A DNA stretch of 64,000 bases, taken from a virus. Its lineage: Duplodnaviria > Caudoviricetes. This document shows, piece after piece, positions 10,683 to 64,000 of this stretch. The translations under genes and the position numbers were made by a program. Position 1 is the stretch's first letter. Every line of letters starts with the position of its first letter. The notes under the pieces are model-generated. The model was not told the DNA's origin and searched no databases. It saw nothing but the letters and a program-made list of their open reading frames with translations. The DNA is taken from positions 32,001-96,000 of IMG/VR virus record IMGVR_UViG_3300026549_000045; one strand, written 5' to 3'.

Positions 10683-11549
10683 ATGTCAAATACAACTTCA
10701 GACTTAAAACCTATAAAGGGTAAGTGTATCTACACAACCAAAGGTGCCGCACGAGAGTATGGCCGTATAGGCTGTAACTTCTTCAAGGGATGCCCGCATG
10801 AGTGTGAATACTGCTACCTTAAACGTGGTGCGCCATCGGCAGAACTGGGTGGTAATACTGCTGTGCTGAAGAAATGTCTTGTCAACGAAGACAAGGCACT
10901 TGAGATATTCTGCAAGGAGGCACGGAAGCATATTGAAGTGCTTAAAAAGTATGGTGTATTCTTATCGTTCTCAACAGACCCGATGCTGACGGAGACCAGA
11001 GACCTGACGTTCTCTGCCATCAACTTCTGCATCAGTAATGACATCCATGTGAAGGTGCTTACCAAAAATGCGGATTTCATTCTCTACGACCGAATGAAAA
11101 ACCTGTGTGGCTCTACTGTAGCCAGGGACTATGTGGAGTTTGGCTTTACGTTGACAGGGCGTGACGATATGGAACCCAAGGCTTCATCAAACCACGACCG
11201 CATCGAGGCTATGAGGCTGTTGTATCAGCGTGGATTCAAGACTTTTGCCAGTATTGAGCCGGTCATCGACTGGACGCACTCAAAGATGGTTATAGACCTT
11301 TCGCTTGACTGCTGCAACCATTACAAGATCGGGCTTCGCTCTGGTGTGAAGAAAGACTATTATTCCGTATTGCGAAGCGGCATGGCCATTCAGGAAATGG
11401 TGGAGAAGATCGTGGCAGCAGGACGTACAGTCTACCTGAAGGAGAGCACCCGTGCCTTATTGCGCAGATGCTATATAGAAGAAGAGAGTGAGCGCATATT
11501 GAGTAAGACGCTTGACATTGACGGCAATCCATACAAAACAATTAAATAA
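10683..11549 (+). CDS. Radical SAM protein (SplB-like phage family)
   Basis: GCPHECEYCY CxxxCxxC; SFSTDP; ASIEPV. Confidence 0.85.
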   Translation: MSNTTSDLKPIKGKCIYTTKGAAREYGRIGCNFFKGCPHECEYCYLKRGAPSAELGGNTAVLKKCLVNEDKALEIFCKEARKHIEVLKKYGVFLSFSTDPMLTETRDLTFSAINFCISNDIHVKVLTKNADFILYDRMKNLCGSTVARDYVEFGFTLTGRDDMEPKASSNHDRIEAMRLLYQRGFKTFASIEPVIDWTHSKMVIDLSLDCCNHYKIGLRSGVKKDYYSVLRSGMAIQEMVEKIVAAGRTVYLKESTRALLRRCYIEEESERILSKTLDIDGNPYKTIK

Positions 11550-11556
11550 AAAAAGT

Positions 11557-12267
11557 ATGCAAGACCAAAGATATGACCAGCTCCGCGAGATTCTGGGAGC
11601 GAATGCCGAAAAGGGCATTGACGAAAGATTCAAAGAACTGTTGCGTAATAATGAACGTGACTTTGATGAAATGATGGAGGTACAGCGTGATTTGGAACCT
11701 AAGTACGTCATTGTGAAGGAAGGTGAGCTGTACAGGTTCCGTGCCAGGTACGTAGACATGCACCGCACGTTGCTCTCGCAGAACGAGATACGCCAGCGTC
11801 TGTGTGACGGTGGTGGTTTCTGGGGCGTTGACGGCGAGAAGCGGCTGGTGACGCTCTATGACAGCAGCTCTGACTTCGGATTTCCAAAGCATATTGAGGA
11901 AGCTATCCACATGGACGGATGGCACCTGCTGGAGATACTTGGCCGGGTGTGTGACAAAAAAGGTGGACTGGTTGACCTCTCGGGTTATCAGATCTCCTAT
12001 ATGGACCGTCAGCATGAGCGTCACTATGTGGACTATCTGAGCAAGGAGGAAGCCGAGGTACTGGAGTACGGCACAAAAGTACAACCTCGTGACATCCGCG
12101 ATAACGACAATCCCGAAGCAGTTGAGCGCATGAAACGACTGTCACGCGAGGACTACGAGAGATTCGGTCGTTGTACGAACTATACACCTCCCAGCACTGT
12201 GAACAAGAAGAAGCGCAAGGCAAAGAACCGTCAGCAGAAGCAGTCACGTAAACGTTCAAGAAGATGA
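11557..12267 (+). CDS. Hypothetical protein, possible Janus/PHPT1-like domain
   Basis: H...CDGGGF...VTLYDSSSDFG; start moved to ATG 11557. Confidence 0.65.
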   Translation: MQDQRYDQLREILGANAEKGIDERFKELLRNNERDFDEMMEVQRDLEPKYVIVKEGELYRFRARYVDMHRTLLSQNEIRQRLCDGGGFWGVDGEKRLVTLYDSSSDFGFPKHIEEAIHMDGWHLLEILGRVCDKKGGLVDLSGYQISYMDRQHERHYVDYLSKEEAEVLEYGTKVQPRDIRDNDNPEAVERMKRLSREDYERFGRCTNYTPPSTVNKKKRKAKNRQQKQSRKRSRR

Positions 12268-12375
12268 ATGACTATATAGAAAGAGCAGTTGCAGACATTG
12301 CACGGAAATGCCATGTCAAGCAAGATGAAGTCTGGGTAGCAATGAAAGAATTGTCAAATTTAAAATGTAAAAACA

Positions 12376-13125
12376 ATGGATAAAGCTCAGGAATTAAAGA
12401 TGCAACTCTTGAAAGAGTTTGGCATTATTGACGAAAAGAAAAGCGTGGACTTCTGCCGTGAAGCCTACAAGTTCCTAACCGAAGGTGAGCAGAATGATAC
12501 ACCTTCAGCCGCTCCGGCAGTATCCAGTGAAGAAGCCATTGCCGTAGATATGGGCCTTCCGTCAGGCACGCTATGGTGTGACCGTAATGTGGGTGCAAAA
12601 TCCCCCGAAGACTACGGTGCTTTCTTCTCTTGGGGCAATACCGATCCGCATTATCCAAACCGTGACAATATGGACTGGGGCGATGATGACGATGGCTTTG
12701 ACTATAGCTTTGACAGCGATACCTATGAAAAGACAGCGGGTTACAAACTGGAAGATAACATTGATATGGCCCATGATGCAGCCCGTGTCAATATGGGTGA
12801 ACCCTGGCAGATGCCTACGGAAGAACAGATTAAGGAGCTATTTGATAATTGCGACTGGGTGCGTAAAACCATCAATGGCGTCAACGGCTATCTGGTTACT
12901 TCTAAGATTAACGGTAACGTTATTTTCTTCCGTGCTTCCGGCGGCGGCTACGGGGCGACGTGGAACAATCGCGGTGCCATCGGTTACTACTGGTCATCGT
13001 CTTGGTACTCTGCCCGCAACGCTCGGAACTTGTTCTTCTTCTCTGATGGTGTGTACCCGCAGTACACGGGCGATCGGTTCGACGGTTTTGCGGTTCGTCC
13101 GGTCCAGTTATCTCACCAGAAATAA
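12376..13125 (+). CDS. DGR target protein 2 (remote), C-type-lectin-fold variable protein
   Basis: VDMGLPSGTLW...WQMPT...GYYWSSS...GFAVRPV; 3' end is a VR matching the TR at 62404. Confidence 0.9.
   Translation: MDKAQELKMQLLKEFGIIDEKKSVDFCREAYKFLTEGEQNDTPSAAPAVSSEEAIAVDMGLPSGTLWCDRNVGAKSPEDYGAFFSWGNTDPHYPNRDNMDWGDDDDGFDYSFDSDTYEKTAGYKLEDNIDMAHDAARVNMGEPWQMPTEEQIKELFDNCDWVRKTINGVNGYLVTSKINGNVIFFRASGGGYGATWNNRGAIGYYWSSSWYSARNARNLFFFSDGVYPQYTGDRFDGFAVRPVQLSHQK
12922..13107 (+). repeat. DGR variable region VR2
   Basis: 186-bp ungapped match to TR; 18 differences at TR adenines plus one C>G near the 5' edge. Confidence 0.95.
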
Positions 13126-13140
13126 ACCATAAGTCAGGGA

Positions 13141-13178
13141 CAGCCACCAGCCGCTCCACCAAGAGCGGCACAAGGCTG
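13141..13178 (+). other. GC-rich hairpin downstream of VR2
   Basis: CAGCC..GCCGCTC-CACCAA-GAGCGGC..GGCTG. Confidence 0.7.
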
Positions 13179-13914: not shown

Positions 13915-15630
13915 ATGGCAGGACTACACGACATCGACAAAAAGGACTGGGAGAGGCTGTTGAAAGACAACGGATTCCAATTCGAGCGGGCGGGTAAGCA
14001 CCATATCTGGAAGCATGAGGACGGCAGGATTATACCTGTGCCTATGGGTCCTAAGATAAGTGCTCCTGTAGCCCGCAGGATGGTGAAGGAGAACAAGCTG
14101 GAGGGTGCCCCCTTCGGATGGAGCGACCTGTGGAAGAACGCCGATGCAAAGGCTCAGGCTATTGAGCAGCAGCGCAAGGAAGAAGAGGAGCGCCGCCTGC
14201 AGGAAAAGGCAGAGCGAGAAGCCAAGGAGCGTGAGGCAGAAGAGCGTCGCCAGAAGGAGGCCGAGCGTCTGAGGAAAAGAGCCGAGGATGCCCGCCGTGA
14301 GAAGGAACAGCGTCAGATAGCAGCTGATGCCGCCAACCGCGAAGCATTGGAGAAAGCCAAGGCTGCACTTGCGGATACTGACGAACAGCAGCCTACAGCA
14401 TCGACAATCCCCACCACTACACCTGTGGCAAAAGCAGCACCAGTTGCCAAGCCTACTGAAACATCAAGCAATTTAACCCCTAAAGCAGTGATTTATATGA
14501 ACGAAAAAAGATTGGAGAACTTCCACGAATACCTCTGTGCGGTCGTGGACTACTATCACAAGAACGGCAAGATCCTAAAGAATTTCTCTTTCCTTGCCAA
14601 GCAGTACAGGGTGAAAGGTATCACCCAAGAAATCTTTAAGAAATACAAGTTGGGCGACCTGAAACCCGGAGAGAAACCCTCACGCAAGCTGTCGGACACC
14701 ATCCGTTTGGAAATGGCCGAGCAGGACATGAAGGCCAGAGAACAGATGCTGGCAGCCTACCAGAAGTCGCAGGACGAAAAGGAGGCCGAACAGCAGCAGG
14801 AGCCTGAGCACGAGCAGACACTGGAGGAACGTATCGACACCTTCGAGGCACGCTTTGACCTGCTTGGCCCTATGTTCGCACAAATAAGCAGTCAGCTGGC
14901 CGAAAGCTACAAGAAGAATTTCGGTCCTCACGCCGACGATTTGCTGGGTAAGGACACATGGCAGGTGCGTCTTTCTCCAGAGCCTTATCTGAACGAGTGG
15001 GCAAACAATGTGGAGTTTGACCTGACAAGGATTGTGTTTGACAATGCCGAACCCGAAGAGGTGAAGATGCTGTTGCCAAAGTGGAACGACAAGATTCTCC
15101 ATGCCTACCTGACGTGGCTCTATGGCGGCAAGGACGGTACGCAGATTAAGCTGGACTTCGACGAGCGCGGCAAGGCTGACTCACAGAACGATGCTCTGAT
15201 AGACCTGTTGCGCGACCAGGGCTTGCTCGACCAGATGATGTTTGTGAAGATAGAGTCGTGGAAAGGCAATGCCCATTGTGTAGCCGTCTATAAGGATGCA
15301 CCCGACATTCTGATGGTCATTGGTGAGGGCGCAACGGACTTCTACACCGTAGCCGATGATATCTGGTACTCTTATTGTGGCGATACGGTACTCTGTCCAG
15401 AGCGTAACTTCAGCTTCGGTGGCTGGGGAACACGTAGCATGGTAGGCTTCTGCCTGCGCCAGATGCTCTCTGAGGATAATCACAAGGCAGCCTTGAAGGA
15501 GCAGCAGAATGTGAGCAAGCAGATGCACGGCAAGCTGATGGACGACATCAATAACTACCGCGACATCTGGCAGATGTATCACGACGACTTCAACAAGCAG
15601 CAGCGTAAGAACATGGTTGATTTTGGATAA
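13915..15630 (+). CDS. Multidomain protein with N-terminal HicA-like domain and coiled coil
   Basis: WERLLKDNGFQFERAGKHHIWKHEDGRIIPVP, then E/R/K coil and P/T linker. Confidence 0.7.
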   Translation: MAGLHDIDKKDWERLLKDNGFQFERAGKHHIWKHEDGRIIPVPMGPKISAPVARRMVKENKLEGAPFGWSDLWKNADAKAQAIEQQRKEEEERRLQEKAEREAKEREAEERRQKEAERLRKRAEDARREKEQRQIAADAANREALEKAKAALADTDEQQPTASTIPTTTPVAKAAPVAKPTETSSNLTPKAVIYMNEKRLENFHEYLCAVVDYYHKNGKILKNFSFLAKQYRVKGITQEIFKKYKLGDLKPGEKPSRKLSDTIRLEMAEQDMKAREQMLAAYQKSQDEKEAEQQQEPEHEQTLEERIDTFEARFDLLGPMFAQISSQLAESYKKNFGPHADDLLGKDTWQVRLSPEPYLNEWANNVEFDLTRIVFDNAEPEEVKMLLPKWNDKILHAYLTWLYGGKDGTQIKLDFDERGKADSQNDALIDLLRDQGLLDQMMFVKIESWKGNAHCVAVYKDAPDILMVIGEGATDFYTVADDIWYSYCGDTVLCPERNFSFGGWGTRSMVGFCLRQMLSEDNHKAALKEQQNVSKQMHGKLMDDINNYRDIWQMYHDDFNKQQRKNMVDFG

Positions 15631-42901: not shown

Positions 42902-42937
42902 CAAATATACCCATATATGTCTGCTGCGTCAAGGGCA
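42902..42937 (-). promoter_or_regulatory. Promoter motif copy 2
   Basis: TGCCCTTG-N20-TATATTTG on minus strand. Confidence 0.7.
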
Positions 42938-47462: not shown

Positions 47463-47552
47463 CCAATATCGTCATTCCGCACACAAAAGTCAAGGGCAAA
47501 TGGCATCGGTTCAGGTTGCCCTTGACTTTCTTTCGCCTATATAGTATATTGC
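47463..47552. promoter_or_regulatory. Back-to-back promoter motif copies 3 and 4
   Basis: Inverted repeat AAAGTCAAGGGCAA/TTGCCCTTGACTTT; each TGCCCTTG lies N20 from GATATTGG (-) or TATATTGC (+). Confidence 0.7.
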
Positions 47553-58613: not shown

Positions 58614-58649
58614 TGCCCTTGACTTTTCCTGTCTCATTCCTTATCTTTC
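58614..58649 (+). promoter_or_regulatory. Promoter motif copy 5
   Basis: TGCCCTTG-N20-TATCTTTC. Confidence 0.7.
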
Positions 58650-60539: not shown

Positions 60540-61424
60540 ATGGAAACAAGTCTTTTTTCACAGTCGCTGAAAAACGCGCAAGCTGCGCTGACGACACAAG
60601 AAAAGGTTTTGAAAACCCAGCAGGTCATGCTCTTCGGACAGGACGGAGCGCCTAACGGCAAGTGTCCCCTCACGACGAAGGCCATTATTGACCTGAAGAC
60701 AGGAAAATCTCTCGAAGACATCCTGGAATACAACAAGCCTTACGTAGACACCGACCTCTACGTGGATATGGGTCTGCCAAGCGGCGTACTCTGGGCTAAA
60801 AAAAACATCGACATCACACAGCAGAACGGCTTTGCCGCATCTGAGTTCCAGTATGAGTGTTCCTTCTGTTCGTGGGGTAATACGGACATGTACAACCCCA
60901 ACGCACAGAACTCGTTCGCTGGCGTGTATAACTGGGGTGGCGTGAACGAAAACGAGCCCTACTACGAGGGCCAGCCCTACGGCTCTACTCCAGGTGCTGC
61001 CCTGGCCGCCGACTTCGGTCCGTCGTTTGACGCAGCACGCCGTCACCTCGGCGCACCCTGGCGCATGCCGTCTACGGAAGAGTACAAAGAACTGTTCGAC
61101 AACTGTGACTTCATAGATGCCGACGGTAACATAGTGTCCGCATCTACCAGTGTGGCTGGTACGGCAGCCGATAAGCGCATCACGATGAACGGCATCGTCG
61201 GTCTTCGCCTTAGAAGCAAGATTAACGGCAACGTTATTTTCTTCCCTGCTTCCGGCAGCGGCTACGGGACGACGTGGGGCTATCGCGGTGCCAGCGGTTA
61301 CTACTGGTCATCGTCTTGGGGCTCTGCCCGCTACGCTCGGAACTTGAACTTCTACTCTGATGGTGTGAACCCGCAGAACTCGCTCAATCGGTACAACGGT
61401 TTTGCGGTTCGTCCGGTCCAGTAA
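60540..61424 (+). CDS. DGR target protein 1 (adjacent), C-type-lectin-fold variable protein
   Basis: VDMGLPSGVLWA...WRMPS...GYYWSSS...GFAVRPVQ; VR ends at the stop codon. Confidence 0.92.
   Translation: METSLFSQSLKNAQAALTTQEKVLKTQQVMLFGQDGAPNGKCPLTTKAIIDLKTGKSLEDILEYNKPYVDTDLYVDMGLPSGVLWAKKNIDITQQNGFAASEFQYECSFCSWGNTDMYNPNAQNSFAGVYNWGGVNENEPYYEGQPYGSTPGAALAADFGPSFDAARRHLGAPWRMPSTEEYKELFDNCDFIDADGNIVSASTSVAGTAADKRITMNGIVGLRLRSKINGNVIFFPASGSGYGTTWGYRGASGYYWSSSWGSARYARNLNFYSDGVNPQNSLNRYNGFAVRPVQ
61236..61421 (+). repeat. DGR variable region VR1
   Basis: 186-bp ungapped match to TR; all 14 differences at TR adenines. Confidence 0.97.
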
Positions 61425-61473: not shown

Positions 61474-61510
61474 CTGCTGCACAGCCGCCACCCAGGCGGC
61501 TTAGCAGCAG
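61474..61510 (+). other. GC-rich hairpin downstream of VR1
   Basis: CTGCTGC-AC-AGCCGCC-ACCCA-GGCGGCT-TA-GCAGCAG. Confidence 0.75.
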
Positions 61511-61563: not shown

Positions 61564-62223
61564 ATGAAACGAGAAATGGCCCAAGAACAAAAGAAAGGAT
61601 TTACCAATCAGGAAATCCAAGCCATCGAAGCCGAAAGACAAGATGTAAAGACTTGGAATGTCATTCACCTGTTGAAAGACGGGAACTACTGGCACGCTAA
61701 CGAGTGGAGTGGCTGGCTCGTGGCCGTGATCATCACGGACGAGATGAAGCGCCGATATCCGCAGGAGGAACGTGTGCCACCGACGCCTGTCAAGAAGTTC
61801 GCCAAGAACATCAACGGAGAGTACATCTTCGTGGGTTTTCAGGAGAAGTCACTTGACAAGTATATTCCGAAGGAATTGCAGATTGACTTTAAGGCTGTTG
61901 ACAACCTTCGCATCGACGTGACTGTTGAACTGTCTGCAGATCTGGGTGAACTCAGCTATGAGCGGCTGTTTGCGATGTATAAGGAATGGAAGGACAATAC
62001 TCCCCTGGCGAAAGAAAAGGGAGAGAAAGGCAACGTAGGCAACAATCCGCCATTCAAGGGTGGCGACGGAACCCTGCCATTCGACAATCCTGCCATCGTG
62101 CCGTCGGTAATGTCTGTCGCCACGCGGATATTGTCATTCCCGCTTCATAAGCGCACACCGATGCAGGCTCACGAGTTTATCGCCGAGCTGCAGCAGGAGA
62201 TGCTTGGGTGTATGAGTAAGTAA
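61564..62223 (+). CDS. DGR accessory protein, MutS-like (MSL)
   Basis: Lies between VR and TR; IHLLKDGNYWHANEWSGWL and YIFVGF resemble MutS domain I; C-terminal TPMQAHEFIAELQ. Confidence 0.65.
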   Translation: MKREMAQEQKKGFTNQEIQAIEAERQDVKTWNVIHLLKDGNYWHANEWSGWLVAVIITDEMKRRYPQEERVPPTPVKKFAKNINGEYIFVGFQEKSLDKYIPKELQIDFKAVDNLRIDVTVELSADLGELSYERLFAMYKEWKDNTPLAKEKGEKGNVGNNPPFKGGDGTLPFDNPAIVPSVMSVATRILSFPLHKRTPMQAHEFIAELQQEMLGCMSK

Positions 62224-62403
62224 ACAAATTGTATAACCTACGGAACAAGAAAAGAGAGCCGATAAAGGATGGTCCAGAAGTATAACATAGGTCACCCGTC
62301 ATGCGTTGCTGAGAGGCCGTGTGAAAAAGCAAAGATACAGCTTGGTCTTGCCTACTGTGGCAACCCCTTGCTGCAGTCGTATAAGGAGGTGACCGAATCT
62401 GCG

Positions 62404-62589
62404 ATTTTCTTCCCTGCTTCCGGCAACGGCAACGGGACGACGTGGAACAATCGCGGTGCCAACGGTAACTACTGGTCATCGTCTTGGAACTCTGCCCGCA
62501 ACGCTCGGAACTTGAACTTCAACTCTGATGGTGTGAACCCGCAGAACACGAACAATCGGTACAACGGTTTTGCGGTTCGTCCGGTCCAG
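62404..62589 (+). repeat. DGR template repeat (TR)
   Basis: 62 codons with 14 AAC + 2 AAT; holds A at every variable position of VR1 and all but one of VR2. Confidence 0.97.
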
Positions 62590-62665
62590 CTATCACTGCG
62601 TCTCTCCTTTGCTCTCTTCTTCTTGTTCTGTCTATTGTGCTGCTGCAAGGCAGCCCCTCTAATCA

Positions 62666-63916
62666 GTGACGCTGAACTATCAGATGTTGCTGCGCGATCT
62701 GTACGTAGCATTTGCAAGTGCTGCAAAGCACAAGGGAAAGATGTCGTATGTGCAACGGTTCATGGAATCAATGAAAACGAACCTGGCATGTATGGCACTG
62801 GTGCTGATACTGCGTGTCTACGTTCCGCTTCCGTCGAAGTGCTTCATCGTATTCAAGCCCAAGCAGAGGGAGGTGTTTGCCGCCCAGTTCCCAGACCGTG
62901 TTGTGCATCACCTGTACTTCAACATGACGCACCTGCTCTACGAGGCCACGTTTATACGCGACTCGTATTCGTGCATACAGGGACGTGGCACACTCGACGG
63001 CATACTGCGACTGTCGCAACACATCCGTCAATGCAGCCTGAACTACACCAGGGAGTGCTATATCCTGAAGCTCGACATACGCGGCTACTTTATGCACATA
63101 GACCGTCGGCGTCTGCTCAGTATCTGCCTGTCTACGCTCGACCGTATGGCGACGCACCGCATCACGAAGGAGGCAGCAGCGCAATATGGGCTGCCGGTGA
63201 ACGACCCGCCACGATGGAAGGACGTGATAGACATGGACTTTGTGAAATGGCTGACGGAGGTGATTGCCCTGCTCGACCCGAAGACCTCTTGCGAGAGAGC
63301 CATGCCTATGTCGGCATGGAACGGGCTCGACGCTGCCAAGTCGCTCTTCTGTACCAAGGAAGGCTGCGGACTGCCGATCGGCAATCTGACATCGCAATTG
63401 TTCAGCAATGTCTACCTGAATGTGCTCGACCAGTTCTGCAAGCGCGTATTGGGCTGTCAGCACTATGGCCGCTATGTGGACGACTTCTACATCGTGAGTT
63501 GCGACCGCAAGTGGCTGCTGTCTCTGGTACCGCGCATCAGGGAGTTCCTGAAGGAGGAGCTTGGTCTGGACCTGCACATGGGAAAGGTAAGGCTGTGCCG
63601 TGCAAGTCATGGAGTGGAGTTTCTGGGAGCCTATATCAAGCCGTACCGCATCTATGTATCGAAAGATACTTTGGAGCGCATACAGCAGAATTTGAAAGAA
63701 CTGGACTTCTCAGACCCGGAAAAGGTGCAGAAGACGGTCAACTCATACCTTGGCATCATGTCGCAGACTGCCAGCTACAATCTTCGCAGGAAGCTGTTCT
63801 TCCGTCCGGAGTTCCTGAGTATTGCGCCCTTCGACAAGAAAATGACCAAGATGGAGAAACCAACGGGCAACCGGCCTCCTGCACGATACAGGCGAAAAAG
63901 GATTAAGACGAAATAA
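62666..63916 (+). CDS. DGR reverse transcriptase
   Basis: PKQREV, DRVVHH, KLDIRGYF, GLPIGNLTSQ, YGRYVDDF, VEFLG; start GTG 62666 or ATG 62684. Confidence 0.96.
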   Translation: MTLNYQMLLRDLYVAFASAAKHKGKMSYVQRFMESMKTNLACMALVLILRVYVPLPSKCFIVFKPKQREVFAAQFPDRVVHHLYFNMTHLLYEATFIRDSYSCIQGRGTLDGILRLSQHIRQCSLNYTRECYILKLDIRGYFMHIDRRRLLSICLSTLDRMATHRITKEAAAQYGLPVNDPPRWKDVIDMDFVKWLTEVIALLDPKTSCERAMPMSAWNGLDAAKSLFCTKEGCGLPIGNLTSQLFSNVYLNVLDQFCKRVLGCQHYGRYVDDFYIVSCDRKWLLSLVPRIREFLKEELGLDLHMGKVRLCRASHGVEFLGAYIKPYRIYVSKDTLERIQQNLKELDFSDPEKVQKTVNSYLGIMSQTASYNLRRKLFFRPEFLSIAPFDKKMTKMEKPTGNRPPARYRRKRIKTK

Positions 63917-63948: not shown

Positions 63949-64000
63949 ATGAAGAAAATTCAAGGTACATTGAGCGACTTCGCGTACTTCAAGGAAGAAG
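63949..64000 (+). CDS. Partial ORF at window edge
   Basis: MKKIQGTLSDFAYFKEE..., A-rich leader. Confidence 0.55.
   Translation, partial: MKKIQGTLSDFAYFKEE

Follow-up and report, generated by a model that had tools for sequence, protein, structure and literature searches.

The window analysed here, a stretch of 64,000 nt, corresponds to bases 32001-96000 of a 135,134-bp IMG/VR virus record (hereafter G000). It encodes a single DGR with two target genes, one beside the cassette (T1) and one about 49 kb from the reverse transcriptase (T2), and the DGR repeat is present in exactly three copies across the 135,134-bp genome, namely the template repeat (TR) and the variable repeats VR1 and VR2. The main features, in window positions, are as follows:

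12376-13125, plus strand: T2, the second DGR target gene (249 aa), with helices at residues 3-15 and 21-35, a disordered linker at 37-51 and a probable lectin-like domain at about 52-246
12922-13107, plus strand: VR2, covering residues 183-244 of T2
60540-61424, plus strand: T1, the cassette-proximal target (294 aa), which closes a row of fibre-like genes
61236-61421, plus strand: VR1, inside the T1 ORF
61564-62223, plus strand: accessory gene in the Avd position (219 aa), a position kept in five other phage loci
62404-62589, plus strand: TR, with 42 adenines in 186 nt and 25 codons with A at position 1 or 2
62666-63916, plus strand: DGR reverse transcriptase (RT; 416 aa; RVT_1, E = 3.7e-14), with IGNLTSQ and YVDD motifs in its translation

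The RT thus encoded in VR2's own genome bears the DGR-type signature ([LIV]GxxxSQ and YxDD), and the 219-aa protein in the Avd position had no family match in Pfam, PHROG or NCBIfam. VR2 aligns with TR over 186 nt without gaps, and 18 of the 19 mismatches fall at TR adenines (11 A>T and 7 A>G), which reproduces exactly the coordinates and counts of the original prediction. Given the share of adenine in TR (42/186), the binomial probability of at least 18 of 19 differences at A is 3.5e-11. Non-adenine TR positions are kept in VR2 at 143 of 144 sites, the lone exception being a C>G change at TR 62414 that results in P186R in T2. All 19 changes occupy codon positions 1 or 2 of the ORF at 12376-13125, and VR2 sits at the C-terminal end of the protein. 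VR1 differs from TR exclusively at adenines (14/14) and in a pattern unlike that of VR2, bearing out the proposal that one TR and one RT have diversified the two targets independently.

T2 and T1 share 47% identity over 223 residues of the lectin-like part (E = 1e-62) and have unrelated N-termini, in agreement with the paralogy and the different N-terminus that had been claimed for T2. With a maximum 19-residue Kyte-Doolittle hydropathy of 0.62, T2 has neither a signal peptide, as had also been predicted, nor a transmembrane segment. The AlphaFold model (pLDDT 69.6, and <50 over most of the VR) shows a mixed C-terminal domain after the linker, which was compared with the lectin-fold families FISUMP (TIGR02145), Lcl_C (PF07603) and DUF8237 (PF26707). 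A Foldseek search of the PDB with the model found no structure at E <= 0.001, and VIA-align with residues 52-246 gave weak Z scores to TaqVP (4.2) and TvpA (4.0), which are DGR variable proteins, and to Lcl-C (3.8). Searches of T2 against Pfam and NCBIfam returned nothing above the cut-off, the best hit being Fib_succ_major (E = 0.079), and no homology to tail proteins was found, the single PHROG match being a family of unknown function (E = 1e-4). Relatives of T2 matched Lcl_C at E = 4e-4, below the cut-off, and their precomputed matches to DUF8237 were weak. Residues 52-246, approximately, are therefore graded as a probable rather than a proven C-type-lectin-like domain, because of the null Foldseek result and the weak VIA-align, Pfam and DUF8237 matches. 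A profile search of T2 against the PDB produced fascin matches only (E >= 0.08), which were rejected as spurious, and a tblastn search of INPHARED recovered only Lak megaphages (31.6% identity). The N-terminal domain (~35 aa, helical, with the motif DFCREAYKF) is nearly invariant within the T2 family; searched for on its own among proteins of 136-436 residues, it was found solely ahead of lectin-type domains, and therefore it gives no clue to function.

The three repeats share a GC-rich 3' end, and both VRs depart from TR past the last shared base. The elements around the ends of the two VRs are the following:

13082-13107, plus strand: GC-rich 3' end of VR2, lying 3' of the last differing adenine site (13081) and the same in TR and VR1
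13150-13169, plus strand: GC-rich hairpin 42 nt past VR2, with a 7-bp stem and the loop CACCAA and without a T tract
61483-61501, plus strand: GC-rich hairpin 61 nt past VR1, with a 7-bp stem and the loop ACCCA

We infer that the segment at 13082-13107 may act as an IMH-like homing segment, and the hairpin at 13150-13169 is proposed, by analogy, to be a target-recognition hairpin or cruciform. In BPP-1, a hairpin downstream of VR is required for homing, its loop is sequence-dependent and its consensus is a 4-nt GRNA loop at 4-34 bp from VR (PMC3240598); avd-TR-brt functions in trans (PMC3240598, PMC5758913). Across the loci compared, 10 of the 14 VR copies and none of the seven TRs are followed, after 26-61 nt, by a perfect GC-rich stem of 6-8 bp, the TR flanks having been used as the control because the stems were picked as the best perfect ones; four of the 14 VR copies have no perfect stem. 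The stems vary in sequence yet stay complementary (GCCGCTC/GAGCGGC, GCCGTTC/GAACGGC, CGCCCTC/GAGGGCG), the loops are mostly of 5-6 nt with CACAA the commonest (5/10), and no T tract follows the hairpins. Four loci in which T2 lies apart from the DGR have a TR of their own each, and a hairpin follows VR2 in all four; VR1 was examined in two of these four loci and has a perfect stem in one. The VR hairpin of these phages looks like a variant of the BPP-1 element, with CACAA-like loops of 5-6 nt at 26-61 nt instead of the 4-nt GRNA loop at 4-34 bp, although the downstream hairpins could instead be terminators.

T2 is one of a series of closely spaced replication and DNA-modification genes that all run in the same direction, so that its placement in the replication/accessory region by the original prediction holds. 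Its neighbours encode a primase-like protein, an exonuclease, a nucleoside deoxyribosyltransferase, a radical SAM protein, a HicA-domain protein and a DnaB-like protein, with a C5 methylase further on. Three features bear on this neighbourhood and its expression:

10683-11549, plus strand: radical SAM protein, weakly PA0069-like or spore-photoproduct-lyase-like
12264-12383, plus strand: micro-ORF of 39 codons, overlapping both the upstream gene at its stop (ATGA) and T2 at its start (ATGGATAA)
58614-58623, plus strand: 10-mer motif TGCCCTTGAC at the head of the operon ending in T1, 66 nt upstream of a gene start

Radical SAM homologues were found at three other T2-carrying loci (L103, L104 and L110). 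The micro-ORF was missed by gene callers, and its DNA is identical in two ENA contigs (L019 and L020); its overlaps on both sides suggest that T2 may be translationally coupled to the early operon. Neither a sigma-70-like promoter nor a T-tract terminator adjoins T2 on its strand. Exact copies of TGCCCTTGAC occur at 42928 (minus), 47489 (minus), 47517 (plus) and 58614 (plus), in the structural region only and each close to a gene end, and the copies at 47489 and 47517 form a divergent pair between genes. This placement is consistent with TGCCCTTGAC being a phage-specific promoter. The motif, which heads structural operons, has no copy near T2.

The 134,182-bp relative G005 carries T1, TR and RT and has no T2, so T2 is evidently dispensable for the virion in that phage. 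The absence extends over about 11.7 kb from T2 onward (G000 44.4-56 kb), for which G005 has no counterpart, and this T2-led stretch looks like a variable accessory island. The replication/early module of G005 is inverted relative to that of G000. Also absent from G005 is the second gene downstream of T2 (13915-15630, plus strand), which follows an intervening 222-aa gene and encodes a 571-aa protein with an N-terminal HicA-toxin-like domain (Pfam E = 3.2e-8) and then a long charged region.

A protein search with T2 recovered 660 relatives, and full-length orthologues of 51-68% identity are carried by smaller phages, whose contigs measure 39-81 kb. At least four other lineages (G003, L021/L106, L103 and L110) have a T2 orthologue that matches a diverged TR of its own genome (87.5-92% identity); differences were counted at the G003 locus only, where all 15 fall at adenines. 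The RT lies 5-9 kb from T2 and on the other strand in L021/L106, L103, L110 and G003, and the TR of G003 is 7 kb from its T2 orthologue, on the opposite strand. T2 comes after a DNA methylase and an SNF2 helicase in L021 and L103, and T2-family genes are found within replication/modification modules in at least five lineages. The MAG behind L023 has a T2 homologue and no TR copy. G000 has few proteins in common with the smaller T2 phages: besides the lectin family of T1 and T2, these are mainly the RT, the products of the Avd-position gene and of the post-RT genes, the C5 methylase and the radical SAM protein. In a scaffold tree built from the target genes without the VR, T2 of G000 groups with T2 of L106 and L103, the T1 genes of G000, G005 and L021 form one clade (100/100), and T1 of G003 falls on the T2 side. 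A recent duplication of T1 within the genome as the origin of T2 was ruled out, as the T2 scaffold groups with the T2 of other phages. At one further locus (L168:2332-3030, plus strand), a 232-aa protein combines the T2 N-domain (58% identity over residues 1-55) with a different, DUF1566/Lcl_C-like C-terminal domain; as judged by eye from their translations, the flanking ORFs are family A DNA polymerase-like and DnaN-like sliding clamp proteins.

Our best explanation is that VR2 is an active target in trans and that T2 is an early, non-virion binder, and we put the probability of this reading as a whole at about 55%. In this scheme, the RT (62666-63916) would copy the TR RNA into adenine-mutagenised cDNA, which would replace VR1 or VR2 in trans. 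The GC-rich 3' end common to the repeats would direct homing, together with the downstream GC-rich, CACAA-type hairpin that is absent after TRs. T2 would be made with the early genes as a hypervariable binding protein that is not part of the virion, its N-domain docking to a constant partner and its variable face tracking a changing ligand. In several Bacteroidales-type phages, the T2 family resides in the replication/DNA-modification module and the T1 paralogue family with the tail fibre genes. The analysis itself establishes VR2 as a target, its activity across populations, the conserved design and the genomic context; the homing mechanism and the expression timing, cellular location and ligand of T2 are the parts of this scheme that we infer.

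For the non-virion role itself, the chances are about even. It is favoured because of the replication/modification context, the lack of TGCCCTTGAC, the lack of export signals, the T2-free G005 and the coupled micro-ORF. Several general considerations count against it: the structural genes of large phages can be scattered, which makes the position of a gene poorly informative; the characterised phage DGR targets are almost all receptor-binding proteins; and lectin-like FISUMP/Lcl_C domains are usually extracellular in action. An intracellular T2, or an action on host defence or regulatory proteins as the original prediction envisaged, is plausible, its whole basis being gene position and the absent export signals. 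The most specific version, in which the T2 family is an early intracellular DGR-programmed binder with the N-domain docked to a constant phage or host partner and the lectin face neutralising fast-evolving host defence proteins, seems rather unlikely. On that version, T2 would be an adaptive counter-defence arm parallel to the diversification of the tail adhesin. Should T2 prove to work within the cell, counter-defence would join adsorption among the functions of phage DGRs.

Somewhat less doubtful than that specific version, and still the lesser possibility beside the non-virion reading as a whole, is that T2 is associated with the virion, as an accessory adhesin or a second receptor-binding protein, its N-domain docking to the particle and its gene simply happening to lie apart from the structural module; both proteins diversified by the DGR would then serve host recognition. 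The targets of phage DGRs are typically tail proteins (PMC8144416, PMC12636319), and gut phage DGRs that diversify two lectin-domain proteins, both predicted to be binding proteins, were described by Baykov et al. 2023 (PMC10743442). T2 and T1 are built on the same lectin-like scaffold (47% identity), the conserved N-domain of T2 could serve as a docking module, and the T2-family gene of L104 occupies the canonical target-Avd-TR-RT position, which would speak for an adhesin and against a non-virion role. Against an adhesin stand the recurrence of T2-family genes in replication/modification modules in at least five lineages, the lack of a T2 in the 134-kb relative and the absence of the structural-operon motif TGCCCTTGAC near T2. 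Moreover, none of the proteins common to G000 and the smaller T2 phages was recognised as a tail, baseplate or capsid protein that could be a shared docking partner.

Whichever of these roles T2 has, VR2 is almost certainly a genuine and active non-adjacent target, in trans, of the phage's single DGR, as judged from its variation among related sequences. The orthologue set comprised 39 full-length 249-aa proteins that came from other metagenomes and had identities of 82% or more; the contigs that encode them reach 133 kb. Mean column entropy was 1.99 bits at the 25 VR codons whose first or second position is templated by a TR adenine, compared with 0.27 bits at the remaining VR codons and 0.087 bits over T2 residues 1-182; since these orthologues are cluster representatives at 90% identity and were picked as different, the amount of diversity is inflated and its location is not. 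Up to 10 residue types were found per A-templated site. An independent 132.6-kb ENA contig (L019) has the same gene order, with flanks of VR2 that are 99-100% identical to those of G000, and its VR2 differs from the G000 TR at 20 sites, 19 of which are adenines. The entropy at the A codons and the adenine differences of this contig indicate that VR2 has been diversified across populations, at adenine-templated codons, contrary to the invariance that the original prediction had named as evidence against itself.

It is accordingly very improbable that VR2 is a relic, diversified earlier or copied from VR1 or TR by recombination and no longer a DGR substrate. The single non-adenine difference (C>G at TR 62414) could be read as decay, and decayed TR-VR pairs are known from some crAss-like phages (PMC12386605). 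P186R is nevertheless private to G000, with P at this residue in 35 of the 39 orthologues, and the near-identical orthologues differ at exactly the adenine-templated codons; the other 143 of 144 non-adenine positions of TR are unchanged in VR2, and the hairpin downstream of VR2 is intact.

Still less credible is that the 49-kb gap is an assembly artefact, a chimeric join of two elements through the VR1, TR and VR2 repeats, a risk that the original prediction had itself raised: assemblers do break at DGR repeats, yet the gene order on either side of T2 recurs in two other assemblies, T2 variants of other samples lie on contigs of 128-133 kb, G005 shares 71 ORFs with G000 that span 5.9 kb to 135 kb and include the early region, the structural genes and the DGR (RT 74% identical), and CheckV rates the G000 record as 100% complete. 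That T2 and the DGR lie on one molecule is thus argued from the genome-wide collinearity with G005 and from contig sizes. As to the breaks themselves, exact look-up of the Avd-position protein returned contigs of 1.2-1.8 kb, below the VR1-to-TR interval, and the single contig with the exact RT stops 106 nt upstream of the RT (loci among L197-L200), which shows that DGR repeats fragment short-read assemblies.

The kind of arrangement described here is already known from two earlier studies, and its novelty had been overstated in the original prediction. Wu et al. 2018 listed numerous phage-associated DGRs that pair an adjacent target with a non-adjacent one, the distance to the RT being <50 kb in nearly all cases, and took A-to-N-only differences to TR as the criterion for targets (PMC5758913). 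Their survey did not look at the function or context of the distant targets, whereas the protein family, the context and a cis hairpin are described here. Benler et al. 2021 found that the DGR of Quimbyvirus ('Quimbyviridae') has one structural target and one in a defence-related island; this second C-type-lectin target is encoded a long way from the structural module, its neighbours being nuclease, methyltransferase and repair genes, and was proposed to be non-structural and to take part in phage-host conflict (PMC8008677). VR2 likewise lies outside the structural module and among DNA-modification genes, a likeness of layout, and the ~73-81-kb T2 phages L021 and L103 have a Quimbyvirus-like layout together with a similar size. 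Unlike Quimbyvirus, G000 is 135 kb in size, its T2 is 49 kb from TR on the same strand, and its RT is one ORF, compared with three overlapping frames in Quimbyvirus.

With BPP-1 and its target Mtd, the system shares adenine-specific TR-to-VR copying, a C-terminal VR in a lectin-type protein, a GC-rich 3' end and a hairpin found only after VR (PMC3240598). BPP-1 differs in having a single adjacent target, at the tail fibre tip, where G000 has two targets, and the 219-aa accessory protein of G000 is unlike that of BPP-1 in lacking an Avd family match. In the tentaclins, the lectin domain is N-terminal and Ig domains come after it, and a role in receptor binding has been proposed for them (PMC10743442), whereas T2 has a helical N-domain and a C-terminal lectin-like domain and is encoded among replication genes. 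Roux et al. 2021 noted that their own pipeline misses remote targets (PMC8144416). New in this work are the member itself and the definition of its family, together with the repeated occurrence of that family in replication modules, a consensus for the hairpin and the finding that a close relative lacks T2. The T2 family is definable by a helical N-domain joined to a lectin-like domain, a design that recurs in several phage lineages, and the locus, with many natural variants known from contigs of 110-133 kb, offers a clean and abundant case for the question of which roles phage DGRs have beyond switching tail-fibre specificity.

Two minor observations concern the surroundings of the RT. A 545-codon open frame (62269-63906, plus strand) overlaps the RT gene out of frame and includes TR in a target-like frame, and a comparable long frame overlaps the RT in L009 (34.5% identity); rather than being a gene, it probably results from the conservation and composition of the RT. 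Directly 3' of the RT, two genes encode proteins of 190 and 180 aa (63949-64000 onward in the window, G000 95949-97063). They also adjoin the RT in the smaller phages G003, L021, L103 and L110, and they may be part of an extended DGR module.
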